Virus record (IMG/VR): IMGVR_UViG_3300025644_000010
Length of the DNA: 34,634 bases
Strand: one strand, 5' to 3'
DNA from: a virus
Shown: one piece after another, positions 9,845 through 33,999 of the stretch
Layout: the number at the start of each line of letters is the position of its first letter
How positions within the stretch are numbered: position 1 is the first letter of the stretch
Translations under genes and position numbers: made by a program
The notes under the pieces: generated by a model
Databases searched by the model: none
Told to the model about the DNA's origin: nothing
The model's input: only the letters and a program-made list of their open reading frames with translations

Positions 9845-10660
9845 TTATCCCTTTCTAAACTCATCGATAGTTTTACCTCTAATACACTCTCCTAGTTCCC
9901 ACACATAGTCATAAATGTGTAAACCACAGCTCGACGCAATAGTTTCACCAGGATCAACACCAATTTCTGTAGCCATATATTCTTTCATCATTTGAATGGC
10001 ACCAAGATTGGCAGGAAATCCATTCCATAAATCCCAGCTCCTAAAATAAACGATAAAATGTAATTTGTTATCTTGAACTCTAACCTGAATATGTCTAAGA
10101 CATGGAGGATCTTGACGCAACATGTCTGATGGTTTAGCTACTTGTAAAACCATTTGATTATTACGAAATCCTTTATTTTTGTAAGTCCAGATAACCAACA
10201 CAATCTGATTAAGATAATAACCAAATTCATCTTTAAAAATGATATTATTATCTTTCCAAATATTCCAAATTTCATCTTCTTGAATCAGTATATCTTTATA
10301 TACTAATTTATATTGATGAACAAAATCTGAAGGGATTTGATACTTTGTTAATCGTTGACCGTAAGTATAACTTTCTCCTTCTTTCACTTCTCCAGTCATA
10401 AGATAAGGTAAATATTCTTCTAAATACCCTTCTTCAACAGGATTAGGCATATTATACTGTGCTGGAATTTGTGGTAATAATGGTCTTATTTCTGGATGTT
10501 TAATTTGAATAGTAATATAATCAAATTCCAGTCTTTTTTGTCCAGCATAAGATCCCCTATCAATAGTAAATCCTCTTCCAGTTTCAATACATTTATAAAC
10601 AGTTTGAAACCATGCATCAGGTAAAGTAGTCGCTGTAATTGTTTCTAAATTATAAGACAT
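9845..10660 (-). CDS. thyA: Thymidylate synthase (ThyA fold)
   Basis: YTYGQRL, catalytic PPCL, YFRSWDLWNGFPAN (Asn indicates dUMP specificity) and HIY. Confidence 0.85.
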   Translation of the reverse strand: MSYNLETITATTLPDAWFQTVYKCIETGRGFTIDRGSYAGQKRLEFDYITIQIKHPEIRPLLPQIPAQYNMPNPVEEGYLEEYLPYLMTGEVKEGESYTYGQRLTKYQIPSDFVHQYKLVYKDILIQEDEIWNIWKDNNIIFKDEFGYYLNQIVLVIWTYKNKGFRNNQMVLQVAKPSDMLRQDPPCLRHIQVRVQDNKLHFIVYFRSWDLWNGFPANLGAIQMMKEYMATEIGVDPGETIASSCGLHIYDYVWELGECIRGKTIDEFRKG

Positions 10661-26595: not shown

Positions 26596-27597
26596 TCATA
26601 ATTGTGCTTTACAACAGGCTTCAATGACCTCATAAAGACAACTAATTAAATGTAGGTATGTGAACTTTTTGTTGTCCATTGTTTCGTAATACCTGACTAC
26701 GATCATTTTGGCTGGTAACAAGTCGATGTTATTAATGATCTCACTGAAAACTGTATCAAAATCAATATCCCAGTTATTATTAAGTAATGTCACAAAGTTA
26801 ACGTAATCTTGAGCTATAATACTATTAGTTGGAAAGTATAAACACTGTTTCTTTAATTTACTGTTATTCATCTTTAAAATACTTTTGGTAATAACTAAGA
26901 ACAAACTAATAATACTTTCTTCAATCTCTGTATTGCCTATAAGATCTGAAAAGACAATCTTTTTATTGTTAGATATATAACTTATTTGTAATTGATTTAA
27001 TATGTCACGCAAACCTTTCTGATAATTATTCTCGACATAAATTCCGAGTTGTTCTTCATCAAAGTCGGCTTCTTCTTCTTTCAAAATCCGATCAATTTGA
27101 TTGAACAGGTTTAATTTATCAAATGAATCTAGATTAAATTTATATGTAAATCGACTAAAAAGTGCTGGATCAAGTTTACGAGGATGATTTGTTGCAGCTA
27201 AGAATACACACGTTTCTACATGTTTTTCCATTAATCCATCTTTCAATGTCACCTGAGCTGCCTTACTCAATTTATCTATTTCTTCAATGTAGACTATGTT
27301 ATGTTTACTCTTATTAGGACTTTTTCCAACCCAATTCTTTAGCTCATCCACTTCAGTTACAGAACGAGTTTTCATACGGAAAAGATCTGACTGTGTTTTT
27401 ATAATATGTCGGATAAGAATCTCTATAAGAGTTGTTTTTCCAAGACCTGGTGCTCCATAGAGTAATAAATTCCCGTCAATTCTTCCAGTTTCTAACCAAC
27501 TTGTAACAAGATTTTTGTGTTGATCATTATTAAACACATAATTCTCTATCGTAGCTGGTTGGTGTTTCTTTATCCAAGCACAATTCTTATCTAACAT
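26596..27597 (-). CDS. Clamp-loader AAA+ ATPase (RFC small subunit / T4 gp44-like)
   Basis: WIKKHQP (W-x-E-K-Y-R-P box), GAPGLGKTT, IEEIDKL and ALFSRF. Confidence 0.85.
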   Translation of the reverse strand: MLDKNCAWIKKHQPATIENYVFNNDQHKNLVTSWLETGRIDGNLLLYGAPGLGKTTLIEILIRHIIKTQSDLFRMKTRSVTEVDELKNWVGKSPNKSKHNIVYIEEIDKLSKAAQVTLKDGLMEKHVETCVFLAATNHPRKLDPALFSRFTYKFNLDSFDKLNLFNQIDRILKEEEADFDEEQLGIYVENNYQKGLRDILNQLQISYISNNKKIVFSDLIGNTEIEESIISLFLVITKSILKMNNSKLKKQCLYFPTNSIIAQDYVNFVTLLNNNWDIDFDTVFSEIINNIDLLPAKMIVVRYYETMDNKKFTYLHLISCLYEVIEACCKAQL

Positions 27598-28153
27598 CTT
27601 TTCTCCTATATTTTCTTCCAGTTAAATGTGACCAAGTTCTTCCTGTATTAATATTAGTTATTGATACTCCTGATACTTTAAATTTTTTAGCAATATTATT
27701 GTGTGAAACACCAATATTTAATAACTCTATTATTTCTAAAACCTCATCTTCTATTAATATAGAGTTTGTAATATCACTTCCTTTATTTTGTCGATTTTTA
27801 TTTTTTTGATCTTTTAAATTATCTTGAATAGTTCCTACCCATAAATGTTTAGGATTAACACAAGATGGATTGTCACAACTATGAAGAACTTGTAAACCTT
27901 CTGGAATTGGACCATTAAAACATTCATATATAAATCTATGAGTTCCAAATTGGTCATATTTAATACTAAAACGACCGTAACCAGATCCGTGTCCACTTTT
28001 AGCACCAATCCATTCCATACAAGAATCTAAATCATCAGATCCATCATCAAGTTTCTTTACATTCACTTTTGACCAAAATCGTTCTAGTACATCATTACCA
28101 TATCCCATTTGATTATAGTATGGTTTTGTATTGTCATACATTTTTATCTCCAA
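27587..28153 (-). mobile_element. Free-standing HNH homing endonuclease with C-terminal HTH
   Basis: RFWSKV, YGRF, THRFIYE...GPIP, VLHSCDNPSCVNPKHL...DN and a C-terminal HTH (IAKKFKVS). Confidence 0.85.
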
Positions 28154-29056: not shown

Positions 29057-29116
29057 TATTATTTCTATATAAAAACAGAGAAAATATAAATTACCCGACT
29101 GCCGAAGCAGCCGGGT
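29057..29116 (-). promoter_or_regulatory. Hairpin + conserved promoter-like cassette, copy 4
   Basis: 10-bp stem with C(UUCG)G loop at 29093-29116, then TTTTCT-N8-ATATAGAAATAATA. Confidence 0.8.
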
Positions 29117-29128
29117 CTTTGTGATGAT

Positions 29129-29341
29129 TTATTCGTAATCATGAATATTTTTTCTTGAAAACACAAAATCTTCAAAAGCACCATTTGGACTTTCTGGACT
29201 ATCTGGATTGTCTTCACTTGGATCTTGATTTCTAGCAAAAGATGCCATAAGATCCTTTTCAGGAGTTAGAGATAAATTAATTACAAAATCCCCAATTCTA
29301 ATTTCGCTTTCTTCATTTTCTTCAATGTCTAATTCTTTCAT
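29129..29341 (-). CDS. Small acidic protein
   Basis: 19 of 70 residues are D/E; its ATG overlaps the radical SAM TGA. Confidence 0.6.
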   Translation of the reverse strand: MKELDIEENEESEIRIGDFVINLSLTPEKDLMASFARNQDPSEDNPDSPESPNGAFEDFVFSRKNIHDYE

Positions 29342-30081
29342 TGGGCCTCCTCTAATGATTTATGAATCATATACTTTTTACCATAATGATTCAATTTTTT
29401 CTCAACCTTCTCTTTGACTTCTTTCCAGTTTATTGTTTTTTGGTGTTTGTTATAATTCAATTTACCAACACCATAAAAATCTGTGAATTCATGAGTATTA
29501 TCGATAACATCTAATGCTTCTTGAAGATCAATAATTGGCTCTAAACTTAACCAAGTTTTAATGTTTCTTTTTTTGGCTCTTCTTAGATTTTCAATCCTTT
29601 GTTTGGGGGAAGCTGCAAATGGTTCCCATTCTTTTTGTAAATCTTCATTTAACATAACTAAAGTAATACCGAATTCGTTTTCTTGAACTTGAGACAAAAG
29701 ATCAAAATCTCTTTGAGCTAAATCTTCTCCTTTTGTAAGTATTCGAACAGGAAAATCAAACGAATTTAATAATTTAATTGATGTTCGTGTTAGTTTTAGT
29801 TCTTCCTCTAGTGGTTGATAAGGATCACTAGTGAATGACATAAGAACTTGAGATTTTTCGAATTCATCATTCTTTTCAATCAATTCTAAGTCTCTTATTA
29901 ATCTCGTAATAATATCCTTTTTTGGTTTAATTGTTCCGTTAAAATTTTCTCTAGTGATTTTACAAACACCAGGGACAAAGCAGTACTTACAACCATGATT
30001 ACAACCTATATAAAGATTGAGCGCAAGATCTGCATATTCTTTAGCAGAACCTTTTGGTTCATATATCACTCTATTTGGCAT
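29338..30081 (-). CDS. Radical SAM protein (SplB/COG1533-like)
   Basis: CNHGCKYC (CxxxCxxC), SDPYQP, ILTKG, WEP and SLEP. Confidence 0.85.
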   Translation of the reverse strand: MPNRVIYEPKGSAKEYADLALNLYIGCNHGCKYCFVPGVCKITRENFNGTIKPKKDIITRLIRDLELIEKNDEFEKSQVLMSFTSDPYQPLEEELKLTRTSIKLLNSFDFPVRILTKGEDLAQRDFDLLSQVQENEFGITLVMLNEDLQKEWEPFAASPKQRIENLRRAKKRNIKTWLSLEPIIDLQEALDVIDNTHEFTDFYGVGKLNYNKHQKTINWKEVKEKVEKKLNHYGKKYMIHKSLEEAQ

Positions 30082-30793
30082 TTGATTTTTCCTTCCACAA
30101 GAGATTTCTCCCTTTAGTATAAGTTATATTTAATGGATCATGTGGTTTCTTTATAAAGATAACTGTACCCATTTGAGTTTTACCATGTTTATAAGGATAC
30201 CCTTGTGGGTATATAGACCAATGATCTGGTATCCAATATTCTTTTAATAATATGTCGAATATATCACTTATTTGAAACTCTGATTTTTCTGAAAAAATAT
30301 ATGGATTTTTTAATACAAAATTACTAATAAGTAGTAATTCGTTTTTAACTCCATTATCTATAGTTTTCATAATTTTCTTAAGATAATCAGATCCATATTT
30401 TGGTTGCATTACACCATCATAATTAATAATTGATGGGTTGAATTGTTTGCCTATTATTCTTTCGCAAATAGTTTCAAGGAAATCTCCATGAATCCATTTA
30501 ATGTGTGGATAATATTTCGCATTAGTTTTAATCACTTTTTCTTCTCGATCAACTCCGTAGAATTGATCTGGGTGAATTAGGTTGGAATTAACCAAATGCC
30601 CTAATTCACCCACTATAGAAGAAGTTCGAGTATAATGCGCTCCACACATTGTCCAATACTCTGAGTTTTCAGGAATTGATAACCTTCTAAATACTTTACG
30701 ATATATTTTAATTATCGTTTTATATCTAGCTTCCACTTTTATATCATCATCCCAAGGACTACTATGTACATAATTAGGTTGTGTATTGCGCAT
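30071..30793 (-). CDS. Putative class I SAM-dependent methyltransferase-fold protein
   Basis: Rossmann-like spacing of YWTMCG, FYGVDRE, WIHGDF and IINYDG; lacks a canonical GxGxG. Confidence 0.45.
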   Translation of the reverse strand: MRNTQPNYVHSSPWDDDIKVEARYKTIIKIYRKVFRRLSIPENSEYWTMCGAHYTRTSSIVGELGHLVNSNLIHPDQFYGVDREEKVIKTNAKYYPHIKWIHGDFLETICERIIGKQFNPSIINYDGVMQPKYGSDYLKKIMKTIDNGVKNELLLISNFVLKNPYIFSEKSEFQISDIFDILLKEYWIPDHWSIYPQGYPYKHGKTQMGTVIFIKKPHDPLNITYTKGRNLLWKEKSNAK

Positions 30794-30814
30794 TATTTAA
30801 ACCCTCAATTAATA

Positions 30815-32161
30815 TTATCTAAGGATATGTTGAAATAATTCTTTCTTTTTGTATATTCGATTGACTAATCCATAATATCCATTCTTTTTTAACCATGTAG
30901 CTGGTGGTAATTTTCCACCATTGTCTTTAGCAAGAATCTCTGCTATTTCTAACCAATCCTCAAAAGATTTACTAGGATTAACCATAAAATCTCTATCAAT
31001 ATGTGAAAATGATTTTTTGTTTAAAGAAAGATAAACTACTAATCTTTTGTGTCCATTCTCTCTTAACCATTTAGCTGGTGGTAATTTTCCACCATTGTCT
31101 TTAGCTAACTTCTCGGCTATTTCGATCCATTCATCTGAAGGTTTGTGACAATAATCTCTTTTAATATGTTTGAATGATTTTTTATTTGCGTATATAATAC
31201 GAATTAATGTATTATAACCATTTGTTTTTAACCATTTAGCTGGTGGCAATTTTCCACCATTGTCTTTAGCTAACTTCTCGGCTATTTCGATCCATTCATC
31301 CAGAGATTTAAGATTATTATCATTTCTTTTAATATGAGAAAATGTATCTCTATTTGATATTATACATTGATATAACTTACGATAACCATTTGTTTTCAAC
31401 CAACTAAGTGATGGTAATTTTCCACCATTGTCTTTAGCTAACTTCTCGGCTATTTCGATCCATTCATCCAGAGATTTACACGGATCATTAATAAAATCTC
31501 TATCAATATGTGAAAATGATTTTTTGTTTATACAAAGATGGTTTACTAATCTTCCGTACCCATTCTTTCTTAACCATTTAACTGGTGGTAATTTTCCACC
31601 ATTGTCTTTAGCTAACTTCTCGGCTATTTCGATCCATTCATCCAGAGATTTACACGGATCATTAATAAAATCTCTATCAATATGTGAAAATGATTTTTTG
31701 TTTAAATGGTAAAGTAAATTTGAATACCCATTTTCTATCAACCATGTAGCTGGTGGCAATTTTCCACCATTGTCTTTAACTAGATTCTCGGCTATTTTAA
31801 GCCATTTTTCTGGAGGCATAGAATCATATTTTCTTTTAATATGATCAAACATTTTCTTATGTTTACTATACAAGAGAGCAGTTAACCCCATATAACCATT
31901 TCTTTTTAACCAAATATATGATTGTAATTTTCCACCATTATCTTTAGCTAACTTCTCTGCAATTTTAACCCAATCCTCTGGTGAATTTCTTTCTTTATAT
32001 AAATTTTCTTTAAGAATATGTTTAAATGAATTTTTATATTTATACAAACAAATTTCTAATCCATTATACCCATTCTCTCTTAACCATTTAGATGGTGGTA
32101 ATTTTCCACCATTTTCTTCAGTTAATTTCTCAGCTATTTGTACCCATTCTTCTATAGATTT
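30815..32161 (-). repeat. Intragenic tandem repeat array, 8 units of about 165-177 bp
   Basis: Includes an identical 119-bp stretch at 31412-31530 and 31586-31704 (period 174 bp). Confidence 0.95.
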
Positions 32162-33886
32162 TCTTTCTCCCTTAATAACATCTCTAAATTCTTGAAATGT
32201 TTTTGATGTACATGTATTAGTTCCAAAAATTCTTAAATCTTCAAAGATGTCATTCAACCAAATTTTATCAAAATCTTCGATAAAATAATTTGAATTATTT
32301 TTAGAATAATCAATTGATTTAATAATATGTTTTTGATTGTGCATTTTTCTAAAAACTAAACCGATGTGATTAATGATTTGGTCTTGATTTTTAATTATGT
32401 TCTCTGATGTTAATAAACATTTGATCCATTGTTTAACATCTTGAGCAGATGGATCTTCTGAAACAGATTTCATAACTATTAGTTTTTTAATTATGTTCTC
32501 CAATAATTTTGCTCTTTCATCATCATCTGGAAATATTTCCTCTAGAGGATTAATATATAACTCTCTTCTATTATTTGATTTTAATTTTGTTGGGTATTTA
32601 ATTGGTTCAATAATGTCTTGTAACAATAAAGATGTTGCTAGAGCATTGAAACTTTTACTTAAATGTATTCGCCTTTCTTCTTCGTTTTTAAATTTACTTT
32701 CAAAAGGAAGAAAACAGTAATATATTATTGATTTCTTATTAAAGAAATCTCTCCACAATCTACCGAAACGTTGATGTGTTATTCTTAAAGTATTTGAAGG
32801 TGCTAAATCAAGACATTGTTCTGCATGAACCCAATCTGATCCTTCATCAAATATTTTAAGAGTTAGTATCACATCAACATGTTTAGCATCTCTATTATCA
32901 AGGAGTATTTCTTTTCTCTTATCTCTACCGTTGGTTTCAATAAGATCAAGAATTTTACAATCATGCCACTCTTCTTTGATAGTTTTAATAAGTTTATCTT
33001 TAAATTTATTCTTATTACTATCATTCATAAGATGACCAACATAAGGACAGAAAATTATGCTCTTTTTGTGTCCTAATTTAAATACTTTCTTAACTTCATC
33101 AAATATTTCATATTGTTTGTATATAACAAAATTAAAAGTAAAATCTTCAATATACTTAATATTTTCTTCCCAATGTTTATCTAGAGGAAGAAAATGCTTA
33201 TCAAATGTATCTAGAATTTCTTTAGGTATAATAGAATTACTATCACCACGATATGGTGTAGCTGTTACTAACCAAAGAGAACTATCAGATTTATTTTTAA
33301 AAATATGATTGACCATACTTCCAATTCTATTTGATGTTTCATTATCCTCATACATTATATGATGAGCTTCATCAATTACGATTGTAGTATTATCAAATAT
33401 ATCATTAAATTTTGATACTTTTGAATATGTTTGAGCTAAAGTAGAATGTGTAACAATAGCCACACGATTTTCAATACCAGGTTCAAATTCTTTCTTTTTA
33501 AGAAATTTAGTTAAGTATTTGATTTTTTGAAGGTTAGATTTCTTGCAAAGATCATGAAAACAATCCCAATTAATTTGTGTACCATCATCATATTGAAGAA
33601 TCATTTTTCCAAAAGATTTTGCAATAAATGTTTGAGGTACAGCTATAACAACTTTCATGTTTGGATTATTTTTCAATCTATCAGCCATAACAAAAGCAAC
33701 ATTAATAGATTTACCTGATCCAGGTGGTTGTATCAGTTGAAAATATTTTGAATTTCGATTTTCTTCAAAAACTTCTCTTTGTTGGTTCCTCTGTGTGATT
33801 ATTTCAAAATCTTCATTTTGATCTATTTTTATATCTACAGGTTTAATTTTATCAATGTGTCTTCCGAAAGCTCTAAAAATAGTCAT
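30815..33886 (-). CDS. SF2 (DEAH) helicase with eight C-terminal ~56-58 aa repeats
   Basis: QPPGSGKS, IDEAHH, TATPYRGD, IFDEGSDW and QRFGRLWR; repeat consensus W.EIAEKLAKDNGGKLPP..WL..NGY. Confidence 0.85.
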   Translation of the reverse strand: MTIFRAFGRHIDKIKPVDIKIDQNEDFEIITQRNQQREVFEENRNSKYFQLIQPPGSGKSINVAFVMADRLKNNPNMKVVIAVPQTFIAKSFGKMILQYDDGTQINWDCFHDLCKKSNLQKIKYLTKFLKKKEFEPGIENRVAIVTHSTLAQTYSKVSKFNDIFDNTTIVIDEAHHIMYEDNETSNRIGSMVNHIFKNKSDSSLWLVTATPYRGDSNSIIPKEILDTFDKHFLPLDKHWEENIKYIEDFTFNFVIYKQYEIFDEVKKVFKLGHKKSIIFCPYVGHLMNDSNKNKFKDKLIKTIKEEWHDCKILDLIETNGRDKRKEILLDNRDAKHVDVILTLKIFDEGSDWVHAEQCLDLAPSNTLRITHQRFGRLWRDFFNKKSIIYYCFLPFESKFKNEEERRIHLSKSFNALATSLLLQDIIEPIKYPTKLKSNNRRELYINPLEEIFPDDDERAKLLENIIKKLIVMKSVSEDPSAQDVKQWIKCLLTSENIIKNQDQIINHIGLVFRKMHNQKHIIKSIDYSKNNSNYFIEDFDKIWLNDIFEDLRIFGTNTCTSKTFQEFRDVIKGERKSIEEWVQIAEKLTEENGGKLPPSKWLRENGYNGLEICLYKYKNSFKHILKENLYKERNSPEDWVKIAEKLAKDNGGKLQSYIWLKRNGYMGLTALLYSKHKKMFDHIKRKYDSMPPEKWLKIAENLVKDNGGKLPPATWLIENGYSNLLYHLNKKSFSHIDRDFINDPCKSLDEWIEIAEKLAKDNGGKLPPVKWLRKNGYGRLVNHLCINKKSFSHIDRDFINDPCKSLDEWIEIAEKLAKDNGGKLPSLSWLKTNGYRKLYQCIISNRDTFSHIKRNDNNLKSLDEWIEIAEKLAKDNGGKLPPAKWLKTNGYNTLIRIIYANKKSFKHIKRDYCHKPSDEWIEIAEKLAKDNGGKLPPAKWLRENGHKRLVVYLSLNKKSFSHIDRDFMVNPSKSFEDWLEIAEILAKDNGGKLPPATWLKKNGYYGLVNRIYKKKELFQHILR

Positions 33887-33934: not shown

Positions 33935-33999
33935 TATTATTTCTATATTAAAACAAAGAAAATATAAATTATCCCTAGCTACCGAAGTAGCTAAGGATA
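33935..33999 (-). promoter_or_regulatory. Hairpin + conserved promoter-like cassette, copy 5
   Basis: 13-bp stem with C(UUCG)G loop at 33970-33999, then TTTTCT-N8-ATATAGAAATAATA. Confidence 0.8.

Follow-up and report, generated by a model that had tools for sequence, protein, structure and literature searches.

The window analysed here is a stretch of 34,634 nucleotides of viral DNA (IMG/VR record IMGVR_UViG_3300025644_000010). Its subject is a four-gene unit at positions 29129-33886, which encodes a superfamily 2 (SF2) helicase with a repeat array (P0001), a protein with a predicted methyltransferase fold (P0002), a radical S-adenosylmethionine (SAM) enzyme (P0003) and a small acidic protein (P0004). 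Homologues of the first three recur side by side, and in some cases fused, in dozens of other large phages, and these three genes are proposed to act together. The open reading frames (ORFs) and other features of the unit and its flanks are as follows.

30815-33886, minus strand: P0001, helicase ORF, 1023 aa
32687..33784, minus strand: SF2 helicase core of P0001 (residues about 35-400), with PPGSGKS, DEAHH, TAT and QRFGRLxRD
32165..32686, minus strand: middle domain of P0001 (residues about 401-574), family-specific and kept in homologues
30818..32164, minus strand: eight tandem repeats of 55-58 aa in P0001 (residues 575-1023), each a helical unit with a short hairpin
30071-30793, minus strand: P0002, 240 aa, predicted class I SAM-methyltransferase fold, uncatalogued family, motifs QYWTMCGAH, GVDRE, W-HGDF and INYDGVMQP
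29338-30081, minus strand: P0003, 247 aa, small radical SAM enzyme (phrog_13321), CX3CX2C at C27/C31/C34
29129-29341, minus strand: P0004, 70 aa, acidic (isoelectric point, pI, 4.1), lineage-specific, coupled by an ATGA overlap with the P0003 stop
33935..33999, minus strand: upstream cassette, a UUCG-loop hairpin (13-bp stem, TTCG loop; terminator of the preceding unit) and then the promoter-like box ATTTATATTTTCTTTGTTTTAATATAGAAATAATA
29057..29116, minus strand: downstream cassette, a UUCG-loop hairpin terminator (10-bp stem with 7 G-C pairs, TTCG loop) and the promoter-like box of the next unit

The four genes are co-oriented. The gap between the helicase stop and the P0002 start is 21 nt, P0002 and P0003 overlap by 11 nt (30071-30081), and the ATGA shared by P0003 and P0004 lies at 29338-29341. 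Each gene is preceded by a Shine-Dalgarno-like sequence, which for P0004 is GGAGG 4 nt ahead of the gene. A first-pass annotation made from the sequence alone had described this four-gene layout, and the ORFs and overlaps are exactly as it gave them. The two UUCG-hairpin and promoter cassettes between which it had placed the unit are also present. Both consist of a G+C-rich UUCG-loop hairpin followed by a conserved A+T-rich box of 35 nt (ATTTATATTTTCTYTGTTTTWATATAGAAATAATA), and the box has 0 mismatches to the consensus upstream and downstream alike. The window contains the box 4 times; the expectation from shuffled sequence is 0. Terminator-like sites in the region number 8 against 1.1 expected. 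Five of the 8 (30902-31769, plus strand) merely mirror the repeat array, being antisense copies of its recurring AKDNGGKLPP coding segment, and were rejected as terminators. One transcription unit is the natural reading of the four genes, as had been claimed, given the bracketing cassettes, the overlaps and the ribosome-binding sites.

P0001 is an SF2 helicase with Walker A, DExH, motifs III and VI and both RecA lobes. The Pfam models DEAD (4.4e-10, 40 bits), ResIII (2.6e-9, 37.7 bits) and Helicase_C (3.1e-5, 24.6 bits) match above cut-off, and helicase motifs I, II, III and VI (PPGSGKS, DEAHH, TAT, QRFGR) are invariant across 18 homologues. The core also has weak or partial matches to PbeA and DpdE (PADLOC-DB 2.0) and to the Dnd-restriction helicase. 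The middle domain has no Pfam match; it is found again in the fusion proteins P0181 and P0187 (both described below). A single-sequence scan of viral contigs with the helicase N-terminus found nothing, and alignment-based scans were needed.

The repeat array reported in the first-pass annotation is real: eight units are present, with a DNA period of 174 and an NGGKL anchor every 55-58 aa. Homologues carry 2 to 8 copies per gene. In an AlphaFold2 (AF2) model of three repeats (predicted local distance difference test, pLDDT, 92.8) each unit is predicted to fold into three or four short helices plus a small hairpin, and the loose connection between units accounts for the predicted template modelling score (pTM) of 0.58. 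In VIA the repeat model returned weak rows of winged-helix/Z-alpha-like type (Z 3-4), and Foldseek found nothing for it at E up to 1e-3. An unusual arrangement occurs at L026:6060-10010, where the helicase homologue is spread over four consecutive ORFs and two adjacent ones carry seven repeats each (14 in total). Frameshifts, assembly errors or a genuinely split gene could each account for it; the methyltransferase-fold gene downstream is shortened to 190 aa.

P0002 has no match in Pfam (E up to 0.1), NCBIfam, PHROG functions or PADLOC, and eight distant members of its family gave no Pfam match either. The Pfam result also led to the rejection of N6_N4 DNA methylase (PF01555) and other Pfam methyltransferase families as identities for it. 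The first-pass annotation had called it SAM-methyltransferase-like as a guess from sequence, and fold prediction of 30071..30793 supports the guess. The AF2 model (pLDDT 90.2) has alternating strands and helices, and Foldseek matches it to more than 500 methyltransferase chains at E <1e-3, with METTL6, aTrm4, Trm14 and NodS at E about 1e-6. VIA lists RsmD-like proteins, METTL16, TrmK and Trm1 at Z about 12 (maximum 12.6, over about 150-190 residues). Motifs I-IV are conserved in the family, and D82 (with E84), D104 and D126 are nearly or fully invariant. On the modelled structure and these motifs P0002 is assigned to the class I SAM-dependent methyltransferase fold, and it lacks an extra domain able to recognise a target. 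About 40 close homologues were found, and a profile search of 1.84 billion representatives gave 666 clusters. A single-sequence scan of viral contigs found nothing, and alignment-based scans were again needed; two profile-derived pattern sets run against genome contigs did not find a cellular copy, a scan limited to those patterns that leaves absence unproven. A family of 666 representative clusters that has no Pfam model merits cataloguing regardless of its function.

The structural neighbours of P0002 raise the question of whether the module acts on RNA. The helicase would then remodel a tRNA, rRNA or mRNA of the host or the phage, and the RNA modification made by the two enzymes would bias translation towards the phage. 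The best neighbours are indeed RNA methyltransferases (RsmD-like, METTL16 with U6 snRNA, TrmK, Trm1, METTL6, aTrm4, Trm14), and the helicase matches the DEAD family. Pairs of a methyltransferase and a radical SAM enzyme are moreover classic in tRNA pathways, for example that of wybutosine. However, the fold ranking is flat, with many small-molecule methyltransferases among the matches, and the similarity of the helicase to ResIII, PbeA, DpdE and XPB-type DNA translocases is no weaker than that to DEAD. An RNA substrate is for these reasons, and for two others that come from the relatives of P0001 and P0003 and are given below, considered an unlikely though serious alternative.

P0003 had been labelled a radical SAM enzyme of SplB type. 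The first part of the label is correct: the protein belongs to the radical SAM superfamily, with a PF04055 score of 51.7 bits against a cut-off of 29.5 and the CX3CX2C motif, and it matches phrog_13321 at 3e-32. The second part is too specific and fails on score. The best named NCBIfam matches are PA0069, Rv2578c and 'mobile pair B', all of them partial and sub-threshold. Assignment to PA0069/Rv2578c (COG1533) was rejected: PA0069 scores 95.2 bits where 360 are required and Rv2578c 64.2 where 430 are, and the match is confined to profile positions 58-227 of 348. These 'SplB-like' families share the radical SAM superfamily with P0003 but are about 320-350 aa long, whereas P0003 has 247 aa. SplB itself, the spore photoproduct lyase, was rejected too, as no lyase model matched in NCBIfam at E up to 0.1 and phmmer, run against every chain in the PDB (E up to 1), found no lyase. 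On a jumbo-phage contig of 207 kb from IMG/VR (L024), 16 PF04055 matches were observed, most of them in a cluster of ~20 kb (at about 152-174 kb), additional to the module's own radical SAM gene.

Cellular COG1533 'SplB-like' enzymes are tied by genomic context to the SOS response and DNA repair (PMC3765255, PMC4929162), and RadicalSAM.org groups both DUF5131 and spore photoproduct lyase in Megacluster-5 (PMC9477430). The module could accordingly be imagined as a repair system, in which the helicase scans packed or ultraviolet-exposed phage DNA and the radical SAM enzyme reverses a lesion (spore-photoproduct-like or alkylation). That the nearest named families of P0003 are these repair-linked ones and that DUF5131 shares a megacluster with the lyase fit such a role, but P0003 falls far below the family cut-offs and lacks a lyase match in NCBIfam or the PDB. 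The conserved and apparently active methyltransferase-fold partner, which is fused to a radical SAM domain in locus L043, would moreover have no obvious part in lesion reversal. The contig of one related locus (L060) is named for the Hainich H41 site; if the name is read correctly this is groundwater and thus a dark habitat. Repair is therefore regarded as improbable.

The case for joint function comes mainly from conserved linkage. Profile scans with the P0002 family yielded 5 viral and 44 metagenome loci, which after merging of near-identical copies represent 42 non-redundant groups. The gene upstream is visible in 35 of these, which are informative for the helicase, and 28 have enough flanking DNA to be informative for the radical SAM gene. 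In 29 of the 35 groups a P0001-family helicase immediately precedes the P0002-type gene, counting two in which a radical SAM gene stands between helicase and methyltransferase. In 4 further groups helicase-associated (HA) or INT_rpt repeats form the end of the ORF fragment upstream, and the remaining exceptions are one unrecognised ORF and locus L035, which has no helicase. Even in L153, a remotely related branch (35% identity to a different subfamily), the helicase and methyltransferase genes stay together and overlap by 4 nt. The radical SAM partner recurs but is not always present: it is adjacent or fused in 18 of the 28 groups, in 13 as a P0003-family protein, in 3 as a DUF5131-like one (L022, L032/33, L043) and in 2 as another PF04055 protein (L034, L041). 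Both gene orders, helicase-methyltransferase-radical SAM and helicase-radical SAM-methyltransferase, are seen, and the linkage holds across divergence down to 30-35% identity. In one phage contig a glutamine-dependent NAD synthetase gene (CN_hydrolase + NAD_synthase; L057:4896-6740) directly follows the helicase-methyltransferase pair.

Natural fusions connect the same activities. L043 has a single unbroken ORF in which a P0002-type domain (E 1e-102) spans residues 26-258 and a radical SAM domain of DUF5131-like type, including the CX3CX2C motif, spans residues 283-507. In P0181 (1068 aa) a P0001-family helicase (core and middle domain, E 1.2e-68) is joined to three Pfam HA domains, with a P0002-type domain (E 1.6e-45) at the C-terminus. 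P0187, a partial protein from a Dehalococcoidales metagenome-assembled genome that NCBI names 'helicase associated domain-containing protein', combines two HA domains with a P0002-type methyltransferase-fold domain. As far as sequence can tell, these fusions argue that all three activities work in one complex.

A purely accidental neighbourhood, in which the genes share a transcript and have no common function, would agree with the lack of a radical SAM gene in about a third of the loci and with a fourth gene that is unique to the window phage. It would be hard to reconcile with linkage kept at 30-35% identity, in two orders, with three radical SAM lineages and in two kinds of fusion, and is the least probable of the explanations considered, with very little chance of being right. 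Co-function had first been claimed from linkage in one genome. It now has behind it a neighbourhood over about 40 loci, two gene orders, non-orthologous radical SAM enzymes and the fusions, while the SplB type and the acidic member have dropped out of the claim. Independent occurrence of the homologues had been named as the outcome that would speak against it; no such unlinked occurrence was found for the helicase-methyltransferase pair, and for the radical SAM gene it is partly true (linked in 18 of 28). A literature search for the combination of helicase, methyltransferase-fold protein and radical SAM enzyme found no paper describing it.

Phylogeny of the radical SAM gene places this linkage in a wider context. 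A maximum-likelihood tree built from 32 phage homologues of P0003 unites 11 of the 12 helicase-linked copies in one clade (support 100/99), which indicates that the helicase link of this lineage is inherited. The clade is nested among copies from smaller phages (about 15-55 kb), where the radical SAM gene, 34-44% identical to P0003, is accompanied by a ParB_N gene and a small methyltransferase-like gene or by a fusion of ParB and N6_N4 DNA methylase. Such company was seen in 12-13 of 20 loci, usually beside terminase genes; in Dulem virus 36, for example, genes annotated as ParB, hypothetical protein and 'PA0069 family radical SAM' are consecutive. These cassettes resemble the module in that a methyltransferase, or a protein like one, is encoded next to the radical SAM enzyme, along with a partner that binds DNA and depends on NTP. 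They differ in that ParB replaces the helicase and the methyltransferase is either N6_N4_Mtase or an unrelated small methyltransferase-like protein. A comparison of the latter with the P0002 family by hhalign was insignificant, and homology of the two was rejected in favour of analogy. The P0003 lineage thus appears to pair repeatedly with a methyltransferase and an NTP-dependent DNA-binding partner. Its occurrence elsewhere beside ParB and bona fide DNA methylase genes near terminase is the first of the two further points against an RNA substrate.

The second concerns the helicase tail. SF2 helicases with C-terminal HA (PF03457) repeats resemble P0001 in combining a helicase core with tandem small helical modules, and two true homologues of P0001, P0181 and L069, have genuine HA repeats in the same position. 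We know of no function for HA helicases. Other relatives end in six DUF4379 treble-clef units (L053) or in INT_rpt repeats (L047, L058, L064). Repeat-ending ORFs upstream of a methyltransferase-fold gene are located as follows.

L053:1-1731: DUF4379 x6
L047:1-810: INT_rpt
L058:392-1246: INT_rpt
L064:1946-3106: INT_rpt
L069:2-685: HA

It looks like whole repeat arrays have been exchanged on a single helicase scaffold across lineages. HA domains are cited as DNA-binding (Mills 2013, as cited in PMC12191111), so those of the fused relatives would, to the extent that this second-hand statement holds, count against RNA. The eight repeats of the window (55-58 aa) are not themselves HA, an identity rejected by a Pfam scan of repeat segments and by hhalign. 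They are positional equivalents of HA arrays, and since homologous helicases with true HA tails exist, the role of the two may be the same. In the first-pass annotation the repeat array was supposed to select the target. This idea gains some weight from the replacement of the tail by HA, INT_rpt or DUF4379 arrays in relatives, and the array may have such a role.

Taken together, the three conserved genes are proposed to form an NTP-driven, DNA-tracking nucleic-acid modification complex, a reading held with a confidence slightly above even. Powered by ATP, the SF2 helicase would open a nucleic acid or move along it, with DNA the most likely substrate, and the C-terminal array of small winged-helix-like repeats would grip the substrate. 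P0002, which has no recognition domain of its own, would for that reason rely on the helicase for access. P0002 and P0003 would then install or process a base modification, one by a SAM-dependent transfer and the other by a radical step. The likely benefit would be a mark on the phage's own DNA that protects it against host nucleases. DNA is moderately favoured over RNA as the substrate because the radical SAM clade is elsewhere found with ParB and DNA methylase genes, the motor resembles ResIII, PbeA and DpdE, and the helicase is linked to HA domains through its relatives. The SOS and repair context of the cellular COG1533 enzymes points to DNA as well, while the resemblance of the fold matches to RNA methyltransferases keeps the RNA explanation alive.

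Several observations do not sit easily with a DNA-tracking complex. Motif I of P0002 (CGAH) deviates from the usual GxGxG. Its nearest structures are mostly RNA methyltransferases (RsmD-like, METTL16, TrmK, Trm1, METTL6), in a ranking so flat (Z about 11-12.6) that RNA is neither proven nor excluded. The resemblance of the repeats to winged helices is weak (VIA Z 3-4), and their tie to HA domains is one of position: Pfam HA is matched by none of 47 three-repeat segments (E up to 0.1), and the similarity that hhalign gave between 97 repeat units and 7 HA copies was insignificant, with a probability of 0.25. In 10 of the 28 informative groups no radical SAM gene lies next to the pair. One helicase homologue (L076) is on a contig of 244 kb, estimated to be 78% complete, that carries no P0002-type gene.

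The proposal of a DNA-tracking complex can be extended to a processive DNA hypermodification machine, in which the translocating helicase carries the P0002-type and radical SAM enzymes along the phage DNA. The product might be an undescribed base modification that needs methyl (or aminocarboxypropyl) transfer together with radical chemistry. This extension is tentative and more likely wrong than right. If it were true, the ParB-methyltransferase-radical SAM cassettes and the TcmP-DUF5131 pairs would be variants with a different sliding or loading partner.

P0004 looks like a real gene. It is strongly acidic (19 D+E against 6 K+R), and no homologue was found in the related loci or, by single-sequence scan, in viral contigs. 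For this reason it is seen as a co-transcribed add-on of the window's lineage and not a conserved member, and the earlier idea that it is a fourth component or a DNA mimic is unsupported. In three loci (L031:7444-7677, L036:2321-2551, L042:7447-7683) a conserved acidic zinc-ribbon protein of 76-78 aa (pI 4.05, two CxxC pairs) follows the radical SAM gene. It is unrelated to P0004 and occupies the same slot, which is suggestive but weak.

Small acidic ORFs of two unrelated forms after the radical SAM gene, together with a helicase that resembles those of restriction-type systems, could point to a weapon or an anti-defence device; the first-pass annotation had named anti-defence, conflict between phages and takeover of the host as possible roles. 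The module would then be directed at foreign nucleic acid, that of the host or a competing phage, which it would modify or damage, or it would block restriction, with the acidic ORF as mimic or inhibitor. No nuclease or toxin domain was detected, however. The module is not a member of any PADLOC-DB 2.0 defence system, where the partial helicase-core matches to PbeA and DpdE have no counterpart in P0002 to P0004, and P0004, having no homologue, provides no conserved component. A role of this kind is very unlikely.

Among known systems, the module is best classed as a variant of the uncharacterised radical SAM and methyltransferase-like cassettes of mobile elements. The closest parallel outside the ParB cassettes is the pair of TcmP and DUF5131 (phage Gp37/Gp68, 'three-Cys-motif'; TIGR04474, PF07505), which likewise occurs on mobile elements and combines an enzyme of the radical SAM superfamily with a companion protein, TcmP, that we take to be methyltransferase-like. 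DUF5131-like proteins replace P0003 beside the P0002-type gene in three loci, in L043 as the fusion described above. Unlike in that pair, the most constant partner of P0002 is an SF2 helicase with repeat arrays, and P0003 itself is not DUF5131. P0002 was rejected as a TcmP, as the TIGR04474 hidden Markov model gave no hit at E up to 10 in five phage records carrying P0002 homologues; P0002 and three relatives have no NCBIfam match either. Type III and Type ISP restriction-modification systems (Res + Mod) similarly couple, and sometimes fuse, an ATP-dependent motor of ResIII type to a SAM methyltransferase, which there acts on DNA. In contrast to them, the module has no nuclease domain and P0002 has neither a DNA-methylase family match nor a target-recognition domain. 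The module additionally has a radical SAM partner and is encoded by lytic-looking large phages.

The window has ~29% G+C, nearly all its genes lie on the minus strand, and it contains T4-style replication genes: topoisomerase II large subunit, clamp loader, two helicases, a DHH phosphoesterase, a thymidylate-synthase-like protein and an HNH endonuclease. The topoisomerase is at most 31% identical to that of any of 50,697 GenBank phages, and on this evidence together the window is a fragment of an uncultured large phage. Neither a nucleotide similarity search of the four-gene unit nor tblastn of P0002 found a match in the same 50,697 genomes. The gene at 9845-10660 (minus strand) encodes a 271-aa protein with a weak match to thymidylate synthase PHROGs (1e-15, over the C-terminal half). 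An enzyme of the dNMP hydroxymethylase type is conceivable, and would be a hint of modified bases in the phage. An HNH homing-endonuclease-like gene (27587-28153, minus strand) overlaps one end of the clamp-loader gene (26596-27597).

Pairs of a radical SAM enzyme and a methyltransferase-like protein are widespread on mobile elements, and to our knowledge none has a known product. To such pairs the module adds a third member that is almost always present, a helicase whose repeat arrays can be exchanged. The fusions link all three and make it a concrete, testable system in large phages. Its modification product, if found, would probably explain the ParB- and TcmP-linked cassettes as well and give the HA-type helicase tails a job.

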